Shown here piece after piece: positions 319-52,047 of a stretch of DNA of 64,000 nt. The stretch's first letter is position 1, and each line of letters opens with the position of its first letter. The DNA lies in the NCBI GenBank assembly GCA_964521195.1, contig CAZFRE010000001.1:575-64574 (forward strand), written 5' to 3'. Made by a program: the position numbers and the translations under genes. The notes under the pieces were generated by a model. It saw only the letters and a list, made by a program, of their open reading frames with translations. It did no database searches and was not told the origin of the DNA. This DNA comes from an uncultured Eubacteriales bacterium (lineage in GTDB: Bacteria; Actinomycetota; Coriobacteriia; Anaerosomatales; JAAXUF01).

Positions 319-1892
319 TCTACATCCCTCGTGAGCGCCGCAAGGAGTACCTGCGCACGTGCCGGATCATGTCGGTGATCTCGTTACTCGCTGCGCTCGT
401 GTACCTCAAGTGGCTCTACCTCGATGCGCGCCCCGACAACGCCGTGCTGTTCGTCCTCCTGGTCGCCGCCGAGACGTTCAACGTCGTGCAGGCGATCGGC
501 TTCTGGTACACGATCTCGATCCAGAAGTGGAACGAACCGGTCGCGATGGACTTCTCGGCGAGTGACGAGACGGTCGACATCTTCATAACCGTGTGCGGCG
601 AGCCGCGTGATGTCGTGGAGCGCACCGTGCGCGGCGTCATGGCCGTTCGGCATCCGCGCAAGAAGGTGTGGGTGCTCGACGACGGCCGGAGCCACGAGAT
701 CGAGGTGCTCGCGTACGTCAACGGCGCCGGCTACCTGACGCGCGACTCGCGTCGCGGCGCCAAGGCCGGCAACATCAACGACGCGCTCGCGCGAACGAGC
801 GGCAAGTACGTCGTCATCTTCGATGCAGACCACGTGCCCCGCCCCGACTTCCTCGAGAAGTCGCTTGGAGCGTTCGTCGACCGGCATGTCGCGTTCGTGC
901 AGACGCCGCAGTCCTACGCCAACCGCATCGACAACCGGGTCGCATGGGGGGCGCACGAGCAACAGCGGCTGTTCTACGGGCCGATCATGCGCGGGCGGCT
1001 CTCGGTCAACGCGGCGTTCTCGTGCGGCACCAACATGATCTTCAACCGAGCCGCGCTCGCAGACGTGGGAGGCATGCCGGAAGACTCCATCACGGAGGAC
1101 CTGCGGGTCTCACTGCTGCTGCTTGAGAAGGGCTACCGCTCCGAGTACGTGCCCGTGGTGCTCGCGCATGGCCTCGGTCCTCTCGATGTGAGCGGCTTCT
1201 TCAGCCAGCAGCTTCGCTGGGCGCGTGGCGGCCTCGAGATCCTCTTCAAGCGCAAGCCGTTCTTCAAGGGCATGCGCCCGGCCACCGGCATCCAGTTCGG
1301 ACTGAGCTTCTGGTACTGGTTCACCGGCCTGGCCTATGCGGTGTATCTCATCCTGCCCGTCGCGTTCCTCGTCTTCGGGCAACGCCCCGTGCAGGCCCCC
1401 AACGACTATCCGCTCTACTTCGTGCCCTACATCGTGGTGACGCTCGCCACCATGGCGTACGCGACCGATTTCGACATCACATTCCGCGGCATCTGGTTCA
1501 CGCTCTCGGCGTTCCCGGTGCACATCGCCGCGCTCTTCTCGGCGCTGTTTGGCGGGGATGCGAAGTTCGTCGTCACGTCCAAGAGTGGCACGAGCCGCTC
1601 GCTTCGTCCCGTCGCGGTGCACATCACGGCGATCGCGGTGCTTGCGTTCTCGATCGTGTTCGGTCTGTGGCGCTACGGCTTCAACCCGTCGGTCATGAAC
1701 AACGTCGCCTTCGCGCTCGGGCACATACTGTTGCTGCAGGGCTTCGTGCGCTACGCGCTTCACCCGCTGGTCCCCGAGGGCGAGGTGGGCGGCCGGGGAA
1801 CCGCCGCGGGTCTGGCCGCCGAGAAGCCCGCCAACGTGAGTGAGCACCAGCCGAAGATCACCGTCGCCGAGTGGGGAGGGCAGGAGGAGTGA
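315..1892 (+). CDS. Cellulose synthase-like processive GT2 glycosyltransferase, no PilZ domain
   Basis: Motifs DDG, AKAGN, DAD, QTPQ, FSCGT, TED and QQLRW. Two N-terminal and about five C-terminal TM segments. Confidence 0.9.
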   Translation: MIYIPRERRKEYLRTCRIMSVISLLAALVYLKWLYLDARPDNAVLFVLLVAAETFNVVQAIGFWYTISIQKWNEPVAMDFSASDETVDIFITVCGEPRDVVERTVRGVMAVRHPRKKVWVLDDGRSHEIEVLAYVNGAGYLTRDSRRGAKAGNINDALARTSGKYVVIFDADHVPRPDFLEKSLGAFVDRHVAFVQTPQSYANRIDNRVAWGAHEQQRLFYGPIMRGRLSVNAAFSCGTNMIFNRAALADVGGMPEDSITEDLRVSLLLLEKGYRSEYVPVVLAHGLGPLDVSGFFSQQLRWARGGLEILFKRKPFFKGMRPATGIQFGLSFWYWFTGLAYAVYLILPVAFLVFGQRPVQAPNDYPLYFVPYIVVTLATMAYATDFDITFRGIWFTLSAFPVHIAALFSALFGGDAKFVVTSKSGTSRSLRPVAVHITAIAVLAFSIVFGLWRYGFNPSVMNNVAFALGHILLLQGFVRYALHPLVPEGEVGGRGTAAGLAAEKPANVSEHQPKITVAEWGGQEE

Positions 1893-3088
1893 GCGAGCGC
1901 ACGGCACGGCGGCTCAATCTCACCGGTATCGCCGGGCTCCTCGGCGCGGTGCTTGTGGCTGTCACGCTCGGCGGGTGCGCGACCGGACGAGTCGCGGAGA
2001 ACACGCCGGCACGGCCCGGCAGCGGCATCGACGAGACGTCGTATTCGGTCGAGCCGAAGATGTGCTGGCGCGTCCAGCCACCGGCATACGGCGCCTACAT
2101 CGGCATCTATCGGCCGCCGATGCCGTTCGTCATCGCCGAGTACGACGCGTACCTCGCGACGACATCACCCAAGCCGCCGTCGATCATCATGTGGTACCAG
2201 CCGTGGGCCGAGTCGGGTCCTCACGAGATCGATCAGGCGGCGCTCGCATCGGTCTACCAGCGAGGCGCGGTGCCGATGATCACGTGGGAACCGTGGGACC
2301 CGGGTACGAACGCCAATGCGGTGCAGAACCCCGGAACGAACCAGAACTGGCGGCTGAAGAACATCCTCGACGGCCGCTATGACGGCTACATCCGCCGTTG
2401 GGCAAGCAAGATCAAGGCGGTCAAGGGCCCGGTCATGCTCAGGCCCATGCACGAGATGAACGGCGAGTGGTACCCGTGGGCGGGGACCGTCAACGACAAC
2501 ACCCCCGCGGACTACATCGCCGCCTGGCGCCACATCCACGACATGTTCGAGGCCGAGGGCGCCACGAACGTCACGTGGGTCTGGAGCATCAACGGCGAGA
2601 GCGTTCCCGACACTCGCGAGAACCGGTACGACGTGTACTACCCGGGCGACGAGTACGTCGACTGGGTCGGCCTTTCCGGCTTCAACTGGGGAACCACCGG
2701 CAACAACTCTCAGTGGGAGACGTTTGACGAGATATACACCGCCCCACTGCGTTACGCGCGCACGCTGAACAAGCCGATCGTCATCGCCGAGTTCGCCAGC
2801 GTGGAACAGGGGGGAGACAAAGCCGAGTGGATCTACGACGCCTACAAGCGGATCCGCACGGAGCACCCCGAGGTCGACGCCGTCGTGTACTTCGATTCGT
2901 TCGAAAGCGGCCCGGACGGTACGCAGGACTGGCGGATTCACACGTCGGCAGAGGCATCGCACGCCTACGCCGACTCCCTCGACGACCCGTACTACCTGCC
3001 CGCTCCACCGGCGACCATGCGCAACTGGATGGACGGCCTGTCCAGCCGCAACTGGATGTATCTTCGCTCGCTGTTGCCGGTGTACTAG
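1889..3088 (+). CDS. GH26 glycoside hydrolase, predicted lipoprotein
   Basis: LGGC lipobox; WEPW, RPMHEMNG (acid/base Glu) and IAEFAS (nucleophile Glu). GTG start overlaps the GT2 stop and follows GGAGGA. Confidence 0.88.
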   Translation: MSERTARRLNLTGIAGLLGAVLVAVTLGGCATGRVAENTPARPGSGIDETSYSVEPKMCWRVQPPAYGAYIGIYRPPMPFVIAEYDAYLATTSPKPPSIIMWYQPWAESGPHEIDQAALASVYQRGAVPMITWEPWDPGTNANAVQNPGTNQNWRLKNILDGRYDGYIRRWASKIKAVKGPVMLRPMHEMNGEWYPWAGTVNDNTPADYIAAWRHIHDMFEAEGATNVTWVWSINGESVPDTRENRYDVYYPGDEYVDWVGLSGFNWGTTGNNSQWETFDEIYTAPLRYARTLNKPIVIAEFASVEQGGDKAEWIYDAYKRIRTEHPEVDAVVYFDSFESGPDGTQDWRIHTSAEASHAYADSLDDPYYLPAPPATMRNWMDGLSSRNWMYLRSLLPVY

Positions 3089-3279: not shown

Positions 3280-3355
3280 CCGACAAAGGCGAACCCGTCG
3301 CGAGGCGGGGGCGCAAAGCCAAGGGTCTCCCCGAGACAGCCTAGCTACCGAAGGT
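3280..3355 (+). ncRNA. c-di-GMP-I (GEMM) riboswitch
   Basis: GGCGAACC, then P2 CCCGTC-GCGA-GGCGGG (GNRA loop), GCGCAAAGCC, P3 GGTCTC/GAGACAGC and CTACCGAAG. The G20/A47/C92 equivalents are at 3288/3315/3348. Confidence 0.85.
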
Positions 3356-3362
3356 GAAGGTA

Positions 3363-4697
3363 ATGAAGAAGCTCGTCGCAGTCCTCGTTCTCGTTCTCGC
3401 TCTGGCCGCAGCGGCCGCAACCCCCGCATTCGCATCCGTCCGAGTCACGGCGCGCGCCAAGACCCAGTTCGCCCAGGGGACTCCTTCCAAGGTCGTCTTC
3501 ACCGCCAAGCTCACCAAGCGCGGCCACGTCAAGCGCGGCATCGTCCGCTTCAGGATCTACCGCAACGGCGAGTTCGTCCGCTCGATCCGGGCCAAGCGGT
3601 CCGGCAAGTCCTACAAGGCCTCGTGGACCCTCACCGACGACGCCCGAACGCTGGCCAGCACCAGCTCCTACCGCTACAAGGTCCGCGCGACCACCAAGCG
3701 CTCCGGCCGCGGTAAGGCATCGGGTCGCGTCACGATTCCGACCCCGACGCCCATCGTGACCCCCTCGGATCCTACGACCGACACGACCGTTCCCACGGTC
3801 ACCCCGGTCCCCGTACCGGTTCCTGCTCCTACCACCACCCCGACGGCGACTCCGGGCCGCTGGGTCGGCTACTACATCCCGGGCTGCCCGTCGCATCTCG
3901 AGCCGCTCGATGAGCTGCAGTCCAAGATCGGCGCGAAGGCCGCGGTGCTCAACTTCTTCATCGCCGACTCCGAGAGTTTCCCGGCCGCCCGCGTCGAGAA
4001 CGCGCAGAGCAACGGCTCCATCCCGATGGTCACCCTCGAGTTCCACAAGACCGTCGACCTGCGTGGCGTCGAGTCGATCACCAACGGGGAGTGCGACACC
4101 TACATCCGCCGCTTCGCGCAGGCTGCCAAGGCCAACGGCGGCGAGATCTGGCTGCGCCCGTTCCACGAGATGAACGGCGAGTGGTCCGCGTGGTGTGGCG
4201 TCGTCGGCAACAACTCCGCTGCCAAGACGGTCGCCGCCTGGAAGCACATCCACGATGTGTTCCAGCAGGAGGGCGCCACCAACGTGAAGTTCGTCTGGAA
4301 CGTCAACGGCTTGAGCTGCCCCAACACCTCGGCGAACGCGATCGAGAAGTACTGGCCCGGCGACGCGTACGTCGACTACACGTCGATCGACGGCTACAAC
4401 TTCGGCAACCACGCGTCGTGGTCGAGCTGGGCGTCCCCCGAGTCGATCTTCGGCGACGCGTACCGCCGCATCAACAAGCTCAGCGGCAAGCCGATGTTCA
4501 TCGCCGAGATGGCGTGCACCTCCAACGGCGGCGACAAGGCTGCCTGGATGGCCAACTTCTTCGCCAACGTGAAGACGCAGTTCCCGAAGCTCGTCGGAGT
4601 GGTCTGGTTCAATGCCGACAAGGAAGAGGACTGGCGCGTCGAGGAGACCCCGGCCACACTGGCCGTCATGCAGAATCTCGCCGTGACCGGCTACTAG
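3363..4697 (+). CDS. Secreted GH26 hydrolase with Lys/Arg-rich N-terminal domain and Pro/Thr linker
   Basis: Signal peptide ending AFA, PT-rich linker, RPFHEMNG and FIAEMAC. Confidence 0.88.
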   Translation: MKKLVAVLVLVLALAAAAATPAFASVRVTARAKTQFAQGTPSKVVFTAKLTKRGHVKRGIVRFRIYRNGEFVRSIRAKRSGKSYKASWTLTDDARTLASTSSYRYKVRATTKRSGRGKASGRVTIPTPTPIVTPSDPTTDTTVPTVTPVPVPVPAPTTTPTATPGRWVGYYIPGCPSHLEPLDELQSKIGAKAAVLNFFIADSESFPAARVENAQSNGSIPMVTLEFHKTVDLRGVESITNGECDTYIRRFAQAAKANGGEIWLRPFHEMNGEWSAWCGVVGNNSAAKTVAAWKHIHDVFQQEGATNVKFVWNVNGLSCPNTSANAIEKYWPGDAYVDYTSIDGYNFGNHASWSSWASPESIFGDAYRRINKLSGKPMFIAEMACTSNGGDKAAWMANFFANVKTQFPKLVGVVWFNADKEEDWRVEETPATLAVMQNLAVTGY

Positions 4698-4805: not shown

Positions 4806-4865
4806 TACGATTGGTACCCGTGAGCGTGCGGGAGCGCGAGCCGATCACATGATGCGAGGTTGAAG

Positions 4866-6083
4866 ATGGTCAGGCGCCAGATACGCCGAGCAGTCCTTGC
4901 GATGATGCTGGCGGTCGCGATAGTCATCGGTCAGGGGTGCGCCGCCTCGCCCTCGGCCACCACAGGGCCCGCCACCCCCTCGGCCTCGGCTCCGGCGACC
5001 GTGGAGGGATCCTCGGCCGCAGTCGCAACCGCGGCCCCGCCGTCCGCGACCACCGGTACGGCATCCGACCCGGGCTACGCACCCGTCGACGACGAACTGC
5101 TCACCATCCAGATCGGTCAGGACTATGCCGTTCTGCCGCCGGCAAAAGGCGTCTACGCGGGGATCTTCGAACCTCCGGCGCCGTTCGGTTACGAGCGACT
5201 CGAGGCCTACGGCGAGAAGTTCGACAAGCCCGCGGCCATCGTGCTGTGGTACCAGGCATGGGAGCCTGACGAGTGGATCGGCGACTTCAAGGAAGAGAAC
5301 GTTCGCGAGATCCTCAAGCGCGGCGCGATTCCGATGATCACGTGGGAGCCGTGGGTCGCAGGCGCGGGCGTGAAGCAGCCCAAGTACCGCTTGAGCACGA
5401 TCATCAACGGCGACTGGGACGAGTACATCCGGTCGTGGGCGAGGGCGGCGAAGTCCATCGACGGACCGATCATGATCCGTCCGTTCCACGAGATGAACGG
5501 CGAGTGGTATCCGTGGGGCGGCACTGTCAACGGGAACAAGCCCTCAGACGTGAAGAAAGCCTGGATTCACGTGCACGACATCTTCGAGGAAGAGGGCGCC
5601 ACGAACGTCACGTGGGTGTGGAGCATCAACTGGGAGAGCTACCCCAACACGTATGCGAACCGGTTCGACGCCTACTACCCCGGTGACGAGTACGTCGACT
5701 GGACATCGATCAGCGGGTTCAACTGGGGCAAGACCCGCACCCGGCCGCAGGGCCGCTCGTTCACCAACATCTACACCAAGCCGCTCGCGTACCTCAAGAC
5801 CGTGGGCAAGCCCGTGGTCATCTCGGAGATCGGCTGCAACAGCAACGTGGACAAGGCCGCGTGGATCAAGGACGCCTACACCCGCGTGCTCCTCAAGTAC
5901 CCGCACGTGAAGGGCATCTGCTACTACGACAAGCGCGAGCCCAACAACGTGAAGGGCACGCAGGACTGGCAGATCTCGAGTTCGAAGTCGTCCGAGAGGG
6001 CGTATCGCTCGGCGATGTCGTCCCGCATGTACATCGGTGGCTCACCGACCTCGCTGCTCGGCACGGTGACCGCCACGCCGTAG
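4866..6083 (+). CDS. GH26 glycoside hydrolase, predicted lipoprotein
   Basis: GQGC lipobox, Ala/Thr/Pro linker, WEPW, RPFHEMNG and ISEIGC; clearly paralogous to 1889-3088. Confidence 0.88.
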   Translation: MVRRQIRRAVLAMMLAVAIVIGQGCAASPSATTGPATPSASAPATVEGSSAAVATAAPPSATTGTASDPGYAPVDDELLTIQIGQDYAVLPPAKGVYAGIFEPPAPFGYERLEAYGEKFDKPAAIVLWYQAWEPDEWIGDFKEENVREILKRGAIPMITWEPWVAGAGVKQPKYRLSTIINGDWDEYIRSWARAAKSIDGPIMIRPFHEMNGEWYPWGGTVNGNKPSDVKKAWIHVHDIFEEEGATNVTWVWSINWESYPNTYANRFDAYYPGDEYVDWTSISGFNWGKTRTRPQGRSFTNIYTKPLAYLKTVGKPVVISEIGCNSNVDKAAWIKDAYTRVLLKYPHVKGICYYDKREPNNVKGTQDWQISSSKSSERAYRSAMSSRMYIGGSPTSLLGTVTATP

Positions 6084-11580: not shown

Positions 11581-12411
11581 TCACCTGCAGAGTGTGACGA
11601 GATGCACTTCGGGGCGCGCGAGGAAGCGAAGCGGCAGTGTGACCGCGCCCACGCCGTTGGAGACGATCACCGGCACGCCGTGCTCGGAGGTGAGCCCTTG
11701 CTGCAGGTAGCGTCGCCCGTAGCGGGTGGGCTTGCGCGGGTTCAGCCGGTAGACTCCCGCGACCTGGCCCCCGTGCGTGTGGCCTGCCAGCGCCAGCACC
11801 CAGCGCCCCGGCAGTGCAGGCAGAGCATCGGCGAACGAGTCCGGGTTGTGCGCGACGAGCACGGCGATGTCGCCCGGCGCAAGGCCCTCGGCCGCCGCAG
11901 CAGCATCCGGCGTCCCGGTCCACTCGTCGGCCAGCCCCGTGATCGCGAGCGTCGCATCGCCGACGCTCAGGCGCACAGTCTCGTTCTCGAGCAGCCTGAT
12001 GCCGGAATCCCGCAGCCTCGAGCGGGCGATGTCGCCGCCCTCCCAGTCGTCGTGGTTCCCAAGCACCGCGAACACGCCGTACTTCGCCGAGAACCGCGCC
12101 GCCGCCGGGTAGAACACGTCGGCACCGCCGTGCCGGCCTCCCACGTAGTCCCCGCCGAGCACCACGACGTCGGCCGAGAGGTCGTTCACCCGCTCGACCA
12201 GCTGCTCCATGCGCGCGGGCCCGTACAACGGTCCCGCATGGATGTCGGCGAGGAAGGCGATCTTCGTGCCGTCGAGGTCTTCCGGCAGGTCGGGCACCCG
12301 GAGGGCTTCGCGGGACACGCCGAGCCCGCGGGCCTCTCGGATCGCCGCCACCACGAACAGGAACGACACGGCCGCCAGCATGCCGAGGACGGTGAGCGCG
12401 ACACCCGACAT
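11581..12411 (-). CDS. Metallophosphoesterase (YkuE/YaeI-like)
   Basis: ADIHAG, GGDYV, GNHD, HNPD and GHTHGGQ. Confidence 0.9.
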   Translation of the reverse strand: MSGVALTVLGMLAAVSFLFVVAAIREARGLGVSREALRVPDLPEDLDGTKIAFLADIHAGPLYGPARMEQLVERVNDLSADVVVLGGDYVGGRHGGADVFYPAAARFSAKYGVFAVLGNHDDWEGGDIARSRLRDSGIRLLENETVRLSVGDATLAITGLADEWTGTPDAAAAAEGLAPGDIAVLVAHNPDSFADALPALPGRWVLALAGHTHGGQVAGVYRLNPRKPTRYGRRYLQQGLTSEHGVPVIVSNGVGAVTLPLRFLARPEVHLVTLCR

Positions 12412-12566
12412 TCAGGCTCCTTGGGGGTTGAAGCGGCTTCCTCCCGATGATACCCACGCCACAGCGCCGTCTTGTGCGCAAGAGCGGTCGGCGCCTGCGG
12501 TCGTCACGTGCCGTCGCGGGGAATACTCATGAGTGAAGCGAGCGACGACGTTCTTGGGAGGCAACG

Positions 12567-13058
12567 ATGGTCCGCATACATGACGATGGCTCGCTCGAGG
12601 ACGAGGAACTCGTTCGCGAGGGCGGTGTGTTCGTGTCGCGCAATGGCGGGCACGAAGCCGACTCGGCCGAGGCGAGAGCTGCCGACGACTACATCGAGGA
12701 CCCGGGAACCGGAGACGGCGTCCCGGGCACCGTTGACGATCTGCCGTACGACTACGGCGTAGAGAACGCCGTGCCTGCCGACCAGTTGCTCGAGAGCTCC
12801 GGCCGAGGCCGGGGACTCGGCAGCAGCATCGGCTACACCGGTGCCGATGACGATCGCGAGCCACCCCCTCTCGGCGGACCGGAGGAGCGGGAGCTGTGGC
12901 GCAGGCAGCGCGCGCTCATCCAGGAGTCCGGGGACGAGGAGCTGCGCTACGCCGGGTTGCCTGACGACCTGGCGGCCAAGGTGGATGCGACCTCGGGCGA
13001 GGACGCGGGCGAGGTGTTGCCCGAAGCGCCGGAGGGCAAGAGCGCGACGGGACTCTGA
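12567..13058 (+). CDS. Acidic low-complexity hypothetical protein
   Basis: GGGAGG RBS, open frame with GC-rich third positions, Asp/Glu/Gly-rich. Confidence 0.65.
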   Translation: MVRIHDDGSLEDEELVREGGVFVSRNGGHEADSAEARAADDYIEDPGTGDGVPGTVDDLPYDYGVENAVPADQLLESSGRGRGLGSSIGYTGADDDREPPPLGGPEERELWRRQRALIQESGDEELRYAGLPDDLAAKVDATSGEDAGEVLPEAPEGKSATGL

Positions 13059-16510: not shown

Positions 16511-16540
16511 TTGCCTAGCCAATACCCGTGGGGGTATGGT
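16511..16540 (+). promoter_or_regulatory. Sigma70-type promoter containing a CsoR/CstR-type operator
   Basis: TTGCCT-N18-TATGGT with the palindrome ATACCC-GTGG-GGGTAT (16522-16537) overlapping the spacer and -10. Confidence 0.7.
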
Positions 16541-16592
16541 GGGTGGCGACCCCGGGCAACGTCCGGGCAGCCGAATGCAGAGGAGCCGACCG

Positions 16593-17009
16593 ATGATCTC
16601 CATCGCCATCCGCGTGGTCGACGTCGACGACTGCAGTTGAAGCGGCGACGGGGATCCGTACTCGGGCGGTCTGTCCGAGTGGATGGCGCTAGAAGCACAG
16701 GTGCTGGGCACCGGCGATGCGTTCGCTGAGCTCTCGGCGTGCGGGATGCCGGTCGAGCGCCAGGCCGAGCTCCTCGAGGCGGCGCTGCGGGAGCGAGGCA
16801 TCGCGGGCATCGCGGTCGACGCGCCCGATCTCTACGACCTTGAAGGTGACGAGCGCGATGCCGCACTGGATGCCATCGTCGAGGGCAGGCCGTCGCCGTA
16901 CGTTCTGGTCGGCGGTCGGTTGGTCTCCTCCGGCGCTATCGAGATGGATTCCGTGTTCGACGCGGTCTCGGCGTGCGCAGGCCACCACTGCGGCGGGCAC
17001 GGGGAGTAG
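16593..17009 (+). CDS. Candidate selenoprotein (138 aa, C-S-U motif, thioredoxin-like/YuzD-like fold, His/Cys tail)
   Basis: AGGAG RBS before ATG 16593; MISIAIRVVDVDDCS-TGA(16638)-SGDGDPYSGGLSEW runs in frame into the 16683 ORF; a SECIS-like hairpin follows. Confidence 0.8.
16654..16684 (+). other. Bacterial SECIS-like hairpin
   Basis: AUCC-[GU bulge]-ACUCGGGC-GGUCU-GUCCGAGU-GGAU; the apical loop begins 28 nt after the UGA. Confidence 0.75.
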
Positions 17010-17011
17010 CG

Positions 17012-17341
17012 GTGGCCGCAGCCTCCGGAACCACCCGCGAGCCCAAGCCCGAGGTCGCCGTGCGCATCCTCGGAAGCCTACGGCCATCACGCGCCGAGAA
17101 GGGCCTGCCGTACGAGTTCTCGGCCTGCGTGCCACATGAGGGCATCTCGGCACGTGCACTCGCCGAGGAACTCGGGTTGCCGATGGATCGCGTCGAGGGC
17201 GCGTTCGTCAATCATGTCGTGCACGGCCTGAGTGTTCGGATCATGCCTGGCGACCGGGTGGCGTTCGTTCCCAACGACACGCCGGGTCCGCATCGCGTGT
17301 TCCTCGGCCTGTACGACGCGGGGAAGGATTCTGGCGAGTAG
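17012..17341 (+). CDS. MoaD/ThiS-like ubiquitin-fold protein lacking the C-terminal GG
   Basis: ARALAEELGLP...VEGAFVNH...PGDRVAFVP followed by the extension NDTPGPHRVFLGLY. Confidence 0.72.
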   Translation: MAAASGTTREPKPEVAVRILGSLRPSRAEKGLPYEFSACVPHEGISARALAEELGLPMDRVEGAFVNHVVHGLSVRIMPGDRVAFVPNDTPGPHRVFLGLYDAGKDSGE

Positions 17342-17374: not shown

Positions 17375-18013
17375 TTAGGGCTCCGGGTGCCCGAGCAGGA
17401 TGCGGATCGCTGCGTGCGCCTCGTGCGCGGCGGCAACCATTACGCGTGAGGCCATCAAGGGCAGGGCGTCGCGCACGTCGCTCTCCAGATCGCCGACGAG
17501 GTAGAAGCGCTCGCCCACGCGCTCGGTCACGATCTCGTTTGCCGACGAGCACCCCGCGAGCCCGGATGCTGACACGAGGGGCATCTGGGGCAACTCGCGC
17601 ATGAGCGTGTTGGCGATCATCGCCTTTGTGTCCGCGTGGTCGACGGCCTCGATGACGACGTGAGAGTCGCGCACGAGATCCGCGACGTTCTCGGCGGTGG
17701 CCCGGGCGGCAACGCGTTGCAGCTCGACATCCGGTCGAATCCGACGAAGCGTGTGCGCCAGCGCGTCCACCTTGGCCAGCCCGAGCTCGTCTTGGAAGTA
17801 GAGCTGGCGGTTGAGATTGGACTCGTCGACCCGGTCGAAGTCTATGAGGGTGAGACGGCCGACTCCCGCGCGCACGAGCAAGTTCGCCGCGTTACTCCCC
17901 AGGCCCCCACATCCGATGAGCGCGACGTGCGCGATGCCGAGTCGCGCGCGCACCGCGTCGTCGTCATTCGTATCGACGGGCGGCCACTCGAAGTCAGAGT
18001 CGCGAGGCGGCAC
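17375..18013 (-). CDS. thiF: ThiF/MoeB-family sulfur-carrier adenylyltransferase
   Basis: GCGGLGSN, DFDRVDESNLNRQ, EAVD and RVMVAAAHEAH. Confidence 0.88.
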   Translation of the reverse strand: MPPRDSDFEWPPVDTNDDDAVRARLGIAHVALIGCGGLGSNAANLLVRAGVGRLTLIDFDRVDESNLNRQLYFQDELGLAKVDALAHTLRRIRPDVELQRVAARATAENVADLVRDSHVVIEAVDHADTKAMIANTLMRELPQMPLVSASGLAGCSSANEIVTERVGERFYLVGDLESDVRDALPLMASRVMVAAAHEAHAAIRILLGHPEP

Positions 18014-18014
18014 G

Positions 18015-18254
18015 CTAGCCCCCTGCGACCGGCGGGAAGATTGCGAGGCGGTCGCCTTCCGACAGGATCTGCTCGTCGGTGGCGTGACGACCGTTCAGGA
18101 ACACGACGCGCGGTTGGTCCGGCAGCCCCAGCTGGTCGATGACGTCGCCGACCGTGGCGTCCGCGGCCGCCTCGATCGCGCGCGAGTGACGTCCGCCCTG
18201 GCCGTCGGGCTGGTACTGAGAGAGGTATGCGAAGAGCGCGAGATTCACCTTCAT
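18015..18254 (-). CDS. moaD: MoaD/ThiS sulfur carrier protein
   Basis: 79 aa; MKVNLALFAYL, VFLNG and C-terminal LAIFPPVAGG. Confidence 0.9.
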   Translation of the reverse strand: MKVNLALFAYLSQYQPDGQGGRHSRAIEAAADATVGDVIDQLGLPDQPRVVFLNGRHATDEQILSEGDRLAIFPPVAGG

Positions 18255-18336: not shown

Positions 18337-20121
18337 CTACTGCAGGCCCATCTCGGCAGCGGTGCCGGCCACGAAGTCGAACACGGAGTCGAGCTCCTCG
18401 TCGGATACGGTGAACACGACGTCGTGTGGCGGCAGCTTCTCCTCGTAGAAGAACTTCGGCAGCCTGTCGTCGGCTGCGGTGAAGCCCGCCCGTGTGTTGT
18501 ACATGCGCTCCATCGTAAGCGTCTCGCGGCCGAGCTGCATGAGCTCGGCGATATCCCATTTGTCACCCGTGTGCGCCTCGACCATCTCGTGGATGGCGAC
18601 GAGCGCCTCGGGGATGTCGAGAACCGGGAACGCGACGAAGATGCACAGGCCCAGCGAGTCGAGCATCGCTGTCGCGATCTGCAGGTTCTTCGACAGGACG
18701 GCCTGACCCTCGGACTTGAGCGGGTCGACGGTGCCGCCAACCGCGAGGATGTTGGAGGTGATGGTGTAGCCGGCGGTGTGGTCGGCACCCATGGTCGAGG
18801 TCGCATAGGTCACGCCGATGCCCTGGATGGGGCGCGGGTCGTAGGCGGGGAGTGCCTGGTGCTTCACGACCGGGATATTAGCGACGCCGAACTTGATGCC
18901 CGTGGCCTCGGCGCCGTCCCAGAGCACGCGCAGCTCGCTGTTCGGGTCGATGCCGGCCTTGAGTGCCTTGAGCGCGCCCTCGGCGTCACCGAACTCGAGC
19001 GCGCCTGATGCCATGTACACGCCCATCGTCGCGCCCATCTCGATCGTATCGAGCCCGAGGTCGCCGCACGCGCGGTCCAGCTCGGCGATGCCGTCGAGGT
19101 CGCCGATGCCGCAGTCGGCGCCGAATGACCAGGCCGTCTCGTACTCCGGACCCTTCGTCTTGTAGTGGCCGTCCTTGTCGAGCCAGTAGCGCGAGCACTG
19201 GATGACGCAGCCGCTGTGGCAGCCGTGGCTCGCGTTCGAGGGCGAGTCGCCGCGCGCGAGTATGGTCTCACGCTGGGTCTCGCCGCCGATCGCATCGGCG
19301 AACTCGAACGTGCCCGCCGAGAAGTTGCGCGTGGGCAGGCCTCCGGCCTCGTTGAGGATGTTCGTCAGGACGTTGGTCCCATACATCGGGAGCCCTGTGC
19401 CTGAGACCGCGTGCTCCTTCAGGGCCGCCGAGAACCTCTTGGCGGCGGCGTTGAACGCGTCTTTGTCGGCGTGGTCGATGGACTTCGCTCCCGTGTAGGA
19501 GATCACGATGCCCTTGAGCCCCTTGCTGCCCATGACCGCGCCCAGACCGCCTCGGCCGGCGAAGCGGTTCGGATAGCCCTTCGGGTCCGAGACGGCGATG
19601 CCCGACGCTCGGGCGCCGACCTCGCCAGCGGGGCCGATGCTGATCGTGGCGAATCTGTCGCCATCCGGGCGCATCGCGGCAAGCTTGTCGTACACCTCGT
19701 AGTTGCCGAGGCCTGCCCAGTCATCGACGCGCTCGAGCCGCGCGGTGCGATCGGCTTCGATCACGAGCGCATAGCGCGCAGACGCATCGGCGGGGACGCC
19801 TTCGATCACGACCGCCGAGAAGCCGATGCGCGCGAGGGCGTGCGCCGCCTGACCGCCGGAGTTGGACTCCTTGATGCCGCCGGTGAGCGGGCTCTTCGCG
19901 CCTACCGAAAGCCGCCCGCCGTTGGGTGCCGTGGTGCCCCCGAGTGTGCCCGGCGCGAAGACGAGCTTGGCGGCGGGGCCGAGCGGGTCGGCGTCCGCCG
20001 GCACCTCGTGGTAGATGATCGCGTCGGTCAGGGCTCGGCCACCGTACTTGGCCCACCCCTCGCGCACCGGCTCGATGGTGACCGAGAGATCGGTCATGTT
20101 GACGCGGAGTAGCTCCCTCAT
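18337..20121 (-). CDS. aor: Aldehyde:ferredoxin oxidoreductase (tungsten/molybdopterin family)
   Basis: SPLTGGIKESNSGG, GRGGLGAVMGSKGLK, CHSGCVIQC, PEYET, DLGLDT and DSLGLC; GGGAGG RBS. Confidence 0.93.
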   Translation of the reverse strand: MRELLRVNMTDLSVTIEPVREGWAKYGGRALTDAIIYHEVPADADPLGPAAKLVFAPGTLGGTTAPNGGRLSVGAKSPLTGGIKESNSGGQAAHALARIGFSAVVIEGVPADASARYALVIEADRTARLERVDDWAGLGNYEVYDKLAAMRPDGDRFATISIGPAGEVGARASGIAVSDPKGYPNRFAGRGGLGAVMGSKGLKGIVISYTGAKSIDHADKDAFNAAAKRFSAALKEHAVSGTGLPMYGTNVLTNILNEAGGLPTRNFSAGTFEFADAIGGETQRETILARGDSPSNASHGCHSGCVIQCSRYWLDKDGHYKTKGPEYETAWSFGADCGIGDLDGIAELDRACGDLGLDTIEMGATMGVYMASGALEFGDAEGALKALKAGIDPNSELRVLWDGAEATGIKFGVANIPVVKHQALPAYDPRPIQGIGVTYATSTMGADHTAGYTITSNILAVGGTVDPLKSEGQAVLSKNLQIATAMLDSLGLCIFVAFPVLDIPEALVAIHEMVEAHTGDKWDIAELMQLGRETLTMERMYNTRAGFTAADDRLPKFFYEEKLPPHDVVFTVSDEELDSVFDFVAGTAAEMGLQ

Positions 20122-20417
20122 CAGAACCTCCCAGGCTGAAACGGTGTCATTCGACACTCAGACGCATGACAGATGTATCCCCAGAACCTCGTGGCGCGGG
20201 ACACCGTCTCGTCGGCGAGCCGGGTCGGCCTTGCGGCAGTCTGCCCCGAGGGCGATCCGACCCCGGGGCATGTCCCACGAGCCGGTCCGGCCTGAGATGA
20301 AATGGAGAGCTTAGGAGCATGCAGGGGTATCCTCCCATCTGAGCCCACGATCCAGGAGCGATTCTTGACCGACTACACCCAACTCATCGCGGCGGTCGCC
20401 GCCGGGCGGTCGCGCGA

Positions 20418-38948: not shown

Positions 38949-39016
38949 CGTGTAGGCACTGATGACACCGATGCGGAGTGCCTGACGGGACTTCGAGACG
39001 AGAAGGGTTCGAGACG

Positions 39017-39298
39017 ATGAAGATGGCATTCTGGATCGTGTTCGTGGCAGGGTTCGTGGCGTGCTCGGCGTTCGGGATCGGGCCGGTGCTCAAGCGCATG
39101 GGCGGCGACTGGATGAGCGCGCCGATGCTCGCAGGGATCGTGCTGGGCTTGGTGATCCTCGTGCTCGCGGTCATGTTCGCGATGGGCGTGCGGCCGGGGG
39201 TGCTCGCGAGCGACTCGGCGATGGTGTGGGCACTGGTGACGGTCGTCGGCGTGAAGGTGGTTGTTGGTGCGATGGCGCTCTCGGGTGCCGCTCGGTGA
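39017..39298 (+). CDS. Small three-TM membrane protein
   Basis: Hydrophobic 93-aa ORF co-oriented with its neighbours. Confidence 0.6.
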   Translation: MKMAFWIVFVAGFVACSAFGIGPVLKRMGGDWMSAPMLAGIVLGLVILVLAVMFAMGVRPGVLASDSAMVWALVTVVGVKVVVGAMALSGAAR

Positions 39299-39412
39299 CG
39301 GTGCCAGTCCGGCTCGACGTCGCGGGTCGCACGCGTGCCTGCCAGGCTTCGCCCGACACCCCGCAGGGTATATACGACACAGATGGATTCTCAGGCCGAG
39401 AGGAGGCGCGTC

Positions 39413-39997
39413 ATGTTGCGGAACACGTTGACCGGCGCGGCGGTCTTCGGCGTGCTGGGTGCTTCGGCGGCCTACATCTGGACCGCTTTCGAGTTCCCGT
39501 TCGCGATCGTGGTGCCGGCGTTCGTGGGCTGGTATGCCGTGATTCGCGGTGACTTCGGCTCACGCAAGGCGCTTGTCGGCGGGCTCGTGGGAGGCGTCTC
39601 GTTCACGGTCGTCTTCATGCTCGCGCTGTTCTTCGCGTTGACCGACGGCTCGCCGGTGGTGCTGACCGCGTGGATGTCGGCGGTGCTCGCTGCGGCGGTG
39701 GCCGGTGCGCTCACCGGCTGGGTGCTGGGCGGTGTGAGGCCGGCGCTGACGGTGGGTGGGTTCTCGGCGGTGGGGATGCTCGTGGCCGTGGCGGCTGCAG
39801 GGCTGCTGCGGACGGTCGCGCCGAGCGCCGTCGACGTCGAGGGCGCCGTGCAGTACGGCTACTTCGCTCTCTCGATGGGCGTCGTGTCGACGATCCTTGG
39901 TGCCGCGTCCGGCGCTGCCGTCTCGTGGGTGAAGGGTCACGAGCTTGGCGGGGACTCGGGCACGCCGATCGAGATGGGGCATCCGAGGCCGTCGTAG
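39413..39997 (+). CDS. Multi-pass Gly/Ala-rich membrane protein
   Basis: GAGGAGG RBS before ATG 39413; about six TM segments. Confidence 0.68.
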   Translation: MLRNTLTGAAVFGVLGASAAYIWTAFEFPFAIVVPAFVGWYAVIRGDFGSRKALVGGLVGGVSFTVVFMLALFFALTDGSPVVLTAWMSAVLAAAVAGALTGWVLGGVRPALTVGGFSAVGMLVAVAAAGLLRTVAPSAVDVEGAVQYGYFALSMGVVSTILGAASGAAVSWVKGHELGGDSGTPIEMGHPRPS

Positions 39998-51242: not shown

Positions 51243-51293
51243 TCGCGGCGCCGCTCGCGCTGCGAGTTGCGTTACCCGCCCCTTGAACATGTC

Positions 51294-51329
51294 ACAGCGT
51301 GGTCATACCATCAGGTATGACCACGCTGT
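51294..51329. promoter_or_regulatory. Perfect 16-bp inverted repeat, probable antitoxin operator
   Basis: ACAGCGTGGTCATACC-ATCA-GGTATGACCACGCTGT. Confidence 0.8.
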
Positions 51330-51358
51330 TCGTTTCACGCGATAGAGGGGTGTTCCCG

Positions 51359-51652
51359 ATGGTCCGCAAAGTGACGATATCCCTTCCGGACGGGCTGCTC
51401 GACGACATCGACGCAGAGGCGCTGGCCAGCGGCACCACGCGCAGTGGCATCGTGCAGGAGGCGAGCGCACACTACCTCGCGCACGCGCGGGACGAGCGCT
51501 CGGCGGGGGAGCGCCAGGCGGAAGCTGACGACCTCGTCGGCTGGCTCTCGGAGCTTGCTGGGCGCCCCGTCAGTGACCGTCGGCAGACGCTTGAGATCCT
51601 GCGTGAGATCCGAGCGACCGACGGCGCGACGGATGAGCCGGAGCAGCCGTGA
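51359..51652 (+). CDS. vapB: Ribbon-helix-helix (CopG) antitoxin
   Basis: KVTISLPDGLLDDID...TRSGIVQEA. Confidence 0.8.
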   Translation: MVRKVTISLPDGLLDDIDAEALASGTTRSGIVQEASAHYLAHARDERSAGERQAEADDLVGWLSELAGRPVSDRRQTLEILREIRATDGATDEPEQP

Positions 51653-52047
51653 GCGCCGACGTCGTCCTGGACGCCTCCGCAGCTGTGAAGTGGGTGCGAG
51701 AGGAGAACGGCAGCGATCTTGCGCGCGAGCTCGTGCGGCGCCATGTGCTTGGCGAGCTGCGGCTCTGGCTCCCCGAGCAGTGCCTCGGCGAACTGCTGGC
51801 GGTCACCACCCGGGTGCACTCGCCCGAGACCGCCGTCGAGGTGTGGCGGCGCGTGCGCCGTGCCAAGATCGCTGTGGCGCCGCTGAGCGACGGATTGGTC
51901 GAGCGCGCGGCGGACGTCTCGGCGGCAAGCGGGTGCTCCTTCTACGACGCGCTCGCCCCCGCACTAGCCGACATGCTCGACGCGCCACTCGTGTCAGCCG
52001 ACAAGCGTGCACACGCCGAGGTGCACGGCGTCTGGTGGCTCGGCTAG
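51649..52047 (+). CDS. vapC: PIN-domain toxin
   Basis: VVLDASAAVKWV.EE, FYDALAPALA and LVSAD. Confidence 0.88.
   Translation: MSADVVLDASAAVKWVREENGSDLARELVRRHVLGELRLWLPEQCLGELLAVTTRVHSPETAVEVWRRVRRAKIAVAPLSDGLVERAADVSAASGCSFYDALAPALADMLDAPLVSADKRAHAEVHGVWWLG

Follow-up and report, generated by a model that had tools for sequence, protein, structure and literature searches.

The closest described parallels to the gene considered here, which occupies positions 16593-17009 (plus strand) of a 64,000-nucleotide stretch (hereafter the window) of contig CAZFRE010000001.1 from an uncultured Eubacteriales bacterium, are found among small proteins of the thioredoxin fold. One example is the DUF1462 (YuzD-like) family (PF07315), represented by S. 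aureus SA0789 (1XG8), a small single-domain thioredoxin fold in which strand 1 leads directly into a Cys motif, CxxC there versus CxU (U, selenocysteine, Sec) or CxC in the present family. Another is ArsD (PF06953; 3MWH, 3KGK, 3KTB), whose thioredoxin fold lacks CxxC and which has a cluster of three Cys-type ligands around the point where strand 1 ends and, optionally, a Cys-rich C-terminal tail, comparable to the tail GGCCSGGCC of P0105 in the present family. Among selenoproteins, Brachyspira Sec.1 and Sec.2 are small thioredoxin-like members of PF13192 (Thioredoxin_3), one of which has CxU in a short N-terminal segment, and both were missed or cut in annotation (PMC5330540); they are the only thioredoxin-like CxU/UxC entries in the table of a 2026 review that inventories 119 prokaryotic selenoprotein families and subfamilies (PMC13188914). 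At the RNA level, the parallel is the selenocysteine insertion sequence (SECIS) of E. coli fdhF. The gene at 16593-17009 is predicted from its sequence to encode one 138-residue selenoprotein in which UGA-16 is decoded as Sec, a reading that is strongly supported and to which we give a probability of about 85%. The gene founds a small family of thioredoxin-like selenoproteins that is absent from existing catalogues and invariably cut short by gene callers; the family is new, its kind well known.

The coding sequence starts at ATG 16593, 7 nt downstream of the ribosome-binding site (RBS) GAGGAG (16580-16585, plus strand). Its first 15 codons read MISIAIRVVDVDDCS up to the TGA at 16638-16640, beyond which the frame stays open until the TAG at 17007-17009, giving 138 codons including UGA-16. 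With the TGA read as Sec, the protein begins MISIAIRVVDVDDCS-U-SGDGDPYSGGL..., and the active-site codons TGC AGT TGA (16632-16640, plus strand) specify Cys14-Ser15-Sec16. The strong RBS, the ATG, the 15 codons and the in-frame TGA are all present at the coordinates that the original prediction had assigned to them, and the GC-biased coding that it had described across the TGA is borne out by the GC content of third codon positions (GC3), which is 14/15 upstream (counted by eye) and 0.84 downstream, as expected for coding sequence in a window of 67.5% GC. The list of open reading frames (ORFs) and the public gene call hold only a 108-codon piece that starts at ATG 16683 (16683-17009). This internal ATG has no RBS in the window gene, whereas GGAG-type sites comparable to that of the window lie upstream of the N-terminal start in other loci. 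Reassignment of TGA in the genetic code was considered and rejected because TGA terminates many ordinary genes of the window: it ends 25 of the 76 high-GC3 ORFs, and many of these 25 are Pfam-confirmed genes. A second candidate for a TGA-split ORF, at 38966-39997, was also rejected, as it consists of two separate membrane-protein genes.

Metagenomes and Coriobacteriia metagenome-assembled genomes (MAGs) supplied 23 distinct homologous loci with TGA at this codon, and the protein is conserved on both sides of the TGA. A first protein search returned five homologues, all called as ORFs of 75-99 residues, each of which has an in-frame TGA in its DNA within the shared context VVD[VL]DDCS-TGA-SG..DPYS.GL. 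A profile search yielded 38 proteins and an exhaustive search of 1.84 billion representatives yielded 91 clusters at 50% identity; apart from P0045 and P0065 (see below), all proteins returned by the homology searches lack the N-terminus. A scan of a genome collection gave six loci (four Coriobacteriia MAGs and two MAGs labelled Eubacteriales), with the TGA in 6/6, and a metagenome scan with the C-terminal peptide pattern [GE]x[DE]RD[AVT]ALDA gave seven, with the TGA in 7/7; as the latter were retrieved by the C-terminal pattern alone, no bias toward TGA is possible among them. The labels of the homologue-carrying MAGs are the sole basis for assigning the source of the window to a Coriobacteriia-like actinobacterium. 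The 23 loci comprise 19 of the main clade (18 that were codon-aligned, in which the TGA is invariant, plus L012), the ~52% identical L034, which has C-G-TGA-T at the Sec16 site, and a distant clade that is ~30% identical and reads TGCG-TGA-G (L024, L027 and L028). Around the TGA, little or no variation is seen at C14, U16, D21-P22, S24, G26 and L27, and both the N-terminal segment and the stretch from the TGA to residue 31 are kept in frame among homologues. The homologues do not begin at a counterpart of Met 16683: the segment upstream of it is conserved, and the starts of the called shortened ORFs are scattered anywhere from residue 31 to 52. One of the main-clade loci, L012 (8199-8577), is a second paralogue in the MAG of L007 that keeps the TGA as well as the hairpin and operator described below and loses the frame after about residue 43, possibly through a frameshift or an assembly indel.

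Besides the loci with TGA, codon 16 is occupied by Cys in two members of the family, P0045 and P0065, which are continuous full-length ORFs with CxC in place of CxU. P0045 (138 aa) reads VVDLDDCGCGCGGG, within the longer stretch VVDLDDCGCGCGGGDPH, and its codon 16 is TGC, as checked on DNA; P0065 (116 aa), known as protein only, reads VINAEACGCV, i.e., ACGC at the TGA-aligned site. Cys is the sole sense codon met at position 16 in the family, and the Sec form prevails, with ~2 Cys forms among ~90 sequence clusters. Additionally, L028 and L029 have two in-frame TGAs, one at the Sec16 site and the other at the otherwise invariant Cys50, where GSA-TGA-DMP replaces SACGMP. TGA standing for two different invariant cysteines is a classic selenocysteine signature.

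Downstream of the TGA, a SECIS-like hairpin lies at 16654-16684 (plus strand), 14-44 nt after the TGA, with the 5' GU bulge and GGUCU loop that the original prediction had attributed to it. It is composed of a lower stem AUCC/GGAU (16654-16657/16681-16684), the GU bulge (16658-16659), an upper stem of 8 bp, ACUCGGGC/GUCCGAGU (16660-16667/16673-16680), and the loop GGUCU (16668-16672), which begins 27 nt after the UGA, within the coding sequence. The upper stem by itself has a calculated energy of -11.7 kcal/mol, and the two stems together reach -15.2 kcal/mol. The published model of bacterial SECIS (bSECIS) elements specifies a loop of 3-9 nt, a stem of 4-16 bp, G in the first two loop positions, a spacing of 16-37 nt and an energy of at most -7.5 kcal/mol (PMC13188914), and the window hairpin lies within every one of these bounds (GGUCU, 8 bp, 27 nt, -11.7 kcal/mol); among the aligned loci, 17/19 fall within the energy limit. 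The comparison with E. coli used a 43-mer of the fdhF SECIS that is 100% identical to fdhF in 5419/5426 E. coli genomes. This 43-mer contains GCAGGTCTGC, and the GGUCU apex that had been claimed for fdhF is indeed there. Both hairpins lie in the coding sequence 3' of the UGA and share this apex, and in both a U is left unpaired on the 5' side, as reported for fdhF. They differ in that the distance from UGA to loop is ~8 nt longer in the window, the stems have unrelated sequences and the lower stem of the present family is not conserved between loci.

The hairpin is conserved at the level of nucleotides. RNAalifold on the 19 aligned loci returned a 7-bp stem with the GGUCU loop, and standard pairs occupy 94.7% of cells when the eighth pair is included. 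One stem pair varies, being A-U in 14 loci, G-U in one and C-G in two, with G-C in L034. Codons 23-27 (TAC TCG GAC GGT CTG) show a synonymous identity of 1.0, being identical wherever the amino acid is shared, versus 0.27-0.6 at other invariant residues (0.27-0.53 at residues such as G39, L61 and P53), and these frozen codons include GGT, although the genome prefers GGC. The codons of the Y-S-x-G-L peptide would be held fixed at the nucleotide level so as to form the hairpin. The Cys form P0045 has neither this peptide nor the hairpin sequence, a joint loss that is as expected if the segment serves UGA decoding. By analogy with described SECIS elements, SelB carrying Sec-tRNA(Sec) would bind the 8-bp hairpin with its GGUCU loop, and UGA-16 would be read as Sec in a SelB-dependent manner.

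To approach the fold of the protein, P0045 and P0065, its natural Cys relatives, were modelled with AlphaFold on the basis of family alignments. The two models share a thioredoxin-like β-α-β-α-β-β-α arrangement with a confident core and have mean predicted local distance difference test (pLDDT) scores of 75.8 and 80.2. In Foldseek searches against the Protein Data Bank (PDB), 1XG8 is the top match for both (E 9.7e-3, probability 1.00, template modelling score 0.52-0.65), and further matches include thioredoxins, glutaredoxins, SelW and, recurrently although more weakly, ArsD (3MWH, 3KGK, 3KTB; E 0.08-2). The 1XG8 structure is of DUF1462, and DUF1462, ArsD and DUF2703 are all placed in the thioredoxin-like clan (PMC3091736). 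Of the YuzD/DUF1462 likeness noted in the original prediction, the part concerning the fold thus stands, whereas in sequence the likeness is weak: the DUF1462 hidden Markov model matches 2/16 members, with a best E of 0.042, below the Pfam gathering threshold. The family further differs from DUF1462 in its layout, as in the models the CxU site right after strand 1 is followed by a ~33-residue insertion that leads to a third invariant Cys, Cys50, at the N-terminus of helix 1. Similarly, family members have no PF06953 match at E up to 10, and, unlike in ArsD, one of the ligands would be Sec and the third lies ~34 residues away instead of 5-6. On these results, the family is related to DUF1462 and ArsD remotely, through the thioredoxin fold, and belongs to neither.

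Other searches also left the family without a named match, as had been anticipated from the DNA. With Sec treated as Cys, scans of 12-16 members against Pfam (E up to 10) and NCBIfam (E up to 1) gave chance-level matches only, as did profile searches against PDB sequences. Domain identifiers are given for nearly every one of the 119 inventoried prokaryotic families and subfamilies, and no fit was found among these, those with CDD, TIGR-superfamily or PTHR identifiers only not having been searched directly (PMC13188914). Unlike Brachyspira Sec.1 and Sec.2, the present family has no PF13192 match, and a separate PF13192 gene lies in the same operon as the distant-clade family gene. A literature search found no paper linking DUF1462 to selenoproteins, and DUF1462 is not among the listed selenoprotein families.

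Across both clades, the invariant residues are V8, C14, U/C16, C/U50, P53, P102, V104, G108 and G114. The Cys50 codon lies at 16740-16742 (plus strand), within S-A-C-G-M-P just ahead of helix 1. Among 105 family members, no column other than that of Pro102 (16896-16898, plus strand) is invariant; this residue is located just before strand 3 (E104-107 in the model) and, from what is established on thioredoxin folds, is a candidate cis-proline. Cys112, nearby in sequence and in strand 4 of the model, is nearly invariant. The window protein has Ser at this position (16926-16928) and is the sole such full-length member examined; it also ends in a Cys/His-rich C-terminal tail, SACAGHHCGGHGE (16968-17006, plus strand), that is specific to it. 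Of the full-length members examined, the window protein alone has this tail, CAGHHCGGHGE, which may compensate for the missing Cys112 ligand. Another tail and an additional domain occur in L028 (762-1625, the same as L029), where the family member carries, in the same frame, an N-terminal fusion to a thioredoxin-like DUF2703 domain and terminates in GGCCSGGCC, the tail noted for P0105; genes for an ArsR-type regulator and a Thioredoxin_3 protein come next.

Upstream of the gene, a promoter-like region occupies 16511-16540 (plus strand), with a -35 hexamer TTGCCT (16511-16516), an 18-nt spacer and a -10 hexamer TATGGT (16535-16540). A strict consensus promoter scan returned none at 16511-16540, and the promoter is recognized by its conservation: 14 aligned upstream regions have a -35-like cTTGCn, 16-20 nt holding an operator-like palindrome and a -10-like TAtnnT, into which the right arm of the palindrome runs. 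In the window, the palindrome ATACCCGTGGGGGTAT (TACCC-N4-GGGTA, i.e., TAC-X8-GTA with G/C tracts) lies at 16522-16537 and overlaps the -10 hexamer. The match to the pattern is exact, versus a chance expectation of 0.02 matches in the window, and the site is found at the same place upstream of the family gene, or of the osmC-gene operon, in at least 16 loci. It lies ahead of osmC in L005 and L010 and of the Cys-form gene in L021, and L030 and L034 contain it as well. This arrangement resembles the type-2 CsoR operator of S. lividans (ATATACCCCTNAGGGGTATAT; PMC3902906) and the CstR operator of S. mitis cst (ATATACCCTTATGGGGTATAT; PMC8643695), in which a TAC...GTA inverted repeat around C/G tracts is likewise located in the promoter. 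By this analogy, the regulator of the family gene would be a CsoR/CstR-family repressor, which would silence the gene until a Cu(I) or persulfide-type signal releases it; as the operator overlaps the -10 hexamer, such a repressor would shut the gene off.

A second operator-like site, ACACCCCGCAGGGTAT, with one mismatch, is found at 39356-39371, ~40 nt upstream of ATG 39413. The adjoining gene (39413-39997) encodes a multi-pass membrane protein without Pfam match, and its homologue in L012 (a Coriobacteriia MAG; 12429-13049) also has the site, at 12373. The presence of the operator at both homologues suggests a small regulon, and on this pattern the membrane-protein gene may belong to the same regulon as the selenoprotein gene.

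Several observations weigh against the reading developed so far. With regard to the hairpin, covariation is slight, amounting to a two-sided change of one pair in 2 related loci of 19, to which L034 adds one type, because the hairpin hardly varies. Its stability relative to shuffled sequences is unremarkable for a GC-rich region (z -0.6 to -1.1 for the window); given this unexceptional folding energy, the support for an RNA element comes from conservation and not from thermodynamics. Additionally, the lower stem is not kept in register between loci, no Rfam model matches the hairpin at either threshold, and no common SECIS was found for the three sequences of the distant clade (L024, L027, L028). 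As for the machinery of Sec insertion, ARAGORN, run on the 64-kb window and 16 loci, detected no tRNA-Sec, Pfam scans of ~50 window ORFs detected no SelA, SelB or SelD, and motif regular expressions for SelD, SelA and EF-type GTPases matched nowhere in the ~209 kb of window and loci. Regarding the operator, the family site is TAC-X8-GTA, 1 bp shorter than the TAC-X9-GTA of CsoR and CstR; regular expressions for the CsoR signature motifs turned up no CsoR-family gene in the neighbourhood of any locus, and PF02583 did not appear in the Pfam scans of window ORFs. In the protein models, the stretch that opens with the CxC motif and closes with the third Cys (residues 14-50) has pLDDT below 55, and the spatial clustering of Cys14, Sec16, Cys50 and Cys112 is therefore assumed. 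Finally, gene context differs between loci, which makes functional inference from it weak.

With these reservations, the function tentatively favoured for the selenoprotein, at somewhat less than an even chance, is that of a stress-induced chaperone or buffer, ArsD-like, whose Cys/Sec cluster would bind either a thiophilic metal(loid) or sulfane sulfur. In such a protein, Cys14, Sec16, Cys50 and usually Cys112 would form the site for the thiophilic ligand. This assignment is favoured by the count of positions that are invariably Cys or Sec, the Cys/His-rich tails of some members, the ArsD-like fold, the metal-type operator and the neighbouring genes of certain members. Specifically, the conserved operon of the distant clade (L024 2111-6749; L025; L027) runs, in order, through genes for an ArsR-type regulator (HTH_5), a Thioredoxin_3 protein and an ArsP_1 permease to the family gene and a Nitro_FeMo-Co gene, and a ZIP transporter gene adjoins the family gene in L030. 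No ArsA-type ATPase occurs in any annotated neighbourhood, and no arsA or arsB neighbour was seen.

A somewhat less likely function and the chief alternative, for a selenoprotein all the same, is that of a thiol-selenol oxidoreductase, in which Cys14-x-Sec16, or Sec16 together with Cys50, would cycle via a selenenylsulfide instead of binding a metal(loid). The thioredoxin-like fold and the thioredoxins and glutaredoxins among the structural matches are consistent with such an activity, and redox proteins make up most known selenoproteins (PMC13188914). Moreover, osmC lies directly upstream of the family gene in six loci (L002, L004, L005, L008, L010, L018), in two of which (L005 and L010) it follows the common operator, and an operator of the same type is used by CstR persulfide sensors (PMC8643695). 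Possible variants are that the protein re-reduces the OsmC-type peroxidase encoded upstream in one subclade, or that it reduces persulfides under CstR-type control. However, three to four invariant Cys/Sec positions together with Cys/His-rich tails exceed the need of a two-electron couple, helix 1 lacks the canonical CxxC spacing at its N-terminus, osmC is missing from most loci, and the neighbours of the distant clade include an ArsR-type regulator and an ArsP_1 permease.

Readings in which no Sec is inserted fare far worse. A near-cognate tRNA could insert Trp or Cys at the UGA with help from the hairpin, so that a selenium-free full-length protein is made by readthrough. Hairpins 3' of stop codons can promote readthrough, and the ~209 kb scanned did not yield Sec machinery, but this account is very improbable given a hairpin that lies within all bounds of the bSECIS model and carries the fdhF-type GGUCU loop that SelB recognises, a site at which Cys is the only sense codon, a second UGA that in L028 replaces another invariant Cys, and family-carrying MAGs labelled Coriobacteriia, a class that includes Sec users. 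More improbable still is that the UGA is a true stop, separating a 15-residue leader peptide from an independently translated ORF with its start at ATG 16683; the hairpin would then serve for attenuation or coupling. Gene callers do report only the downstream ORF in homologues, and ATG 16683 exists in the window; yet internal starts are not conserved, the RBS is at ATG 16593 and not at ATG 16683, and the Cys forms run as unbroken ORFs across the site. In addition, the segment SG.GDPYS.GL.E..EA.V.G is conserved in frame, with third positions varying outside the hairpin. Lastly, a pseudogene, a private nonsense mutation or a sequencing or assembly error, for which the frame lost in the L012 paralogue might be quoted, is effectively refuted by conservation, as the identical TGA recurs across different samples and assemblers, in 23 independent loci that include the ~30% identical clade, and an independent Logan assembly (the twin contig L013) gives the same sequence as the window.

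In the window, the selenoprotein gene is followed 3 nt past its stop by an ORF of 109 aa (17012-17341, plus strand), called on L013, whose similarity to ThiS/Ub-Mut7C is sub-threshold (E 0.14-0.19) and which is not conserved beside the family elsewhere; it is probably co-transcribed with the selenoprotein gene, in this genome only. On the minus strand, a divergent cluster encodes a ThiF-family E1-like protein (17375-18013), a ThiS/MoaD protein (18015-18254) and an aldehyde:ferredoxin oxidoreductase (18337-20157). A functional link to this cluster was considered and rejected because the neighbourhood is unique to the window. Other neighbours of family members include DUF302 genes within a few kb in L002, L004 and L034, in variable orientation, a Zn-ribbon (FmdB-family) gene directly after the selenoprotein gene in L004 and L010, and a PIN/ribbon-helix-helix pair just upstream of the family gene in L001.

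Elsewhere in the window, a ribbon-helix-helix/HicB-like antitoxin ORF and an overlapping PIN-domain ORF (51287-52047, plus strand) form a probable toxin-antitoxin pair. The sole Rfam match of the window is a c-di-GMP-I-GGC riboswitch (RF03167; 3279-3353, plus strand; 69.4 bits, gathering score 59). Three GH26-domain genes stand in tandem there (1844-3088, 3345-4697 and 4824-6083), and the riboswitch lies directly upstream of the second. These genes come after a GT2/cellulose-synthase-like gene (285-1892), and together they look like a c-di-GMP-controlled polysaccharide locus.

Public calls for the family are fragments of 39-117 residues without the active site, and reading the UGA as Sec restores proteins of 116-150 residues with a CxU...C centre. 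One family is thereby added to the prokaryotic selenoprotein inventory, and, unusually, its Sec forms vastly outnumber its Cys forms; this heavy predominance of Sec and the conserved promoter-operator arrangement are its standout features. The fdhF-like apex of the SECIS should make heterologous expression and reporter tests easier. It is possible, although doubtful, that the family is the first Sec member of the ArsD/DUF1462 thioredoxin-fold branch, in which Sec is the norm, with a second Sec at Cys50 in some members, and that it would depend on selenium to chaperone or buffer soft metal(loid)s or sulfane sulfur within a small CsoR/CstR-switched regulon of uncultured Coriobacteriia-like actinobacteria. 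If true, this would tie selenium use directly to copper or sulfide stress, and the conserved CsoR/CstR-type operator offers a testable link between selenium use and metal/sulfide stress in poorly known anaerobic Actinomycetota.

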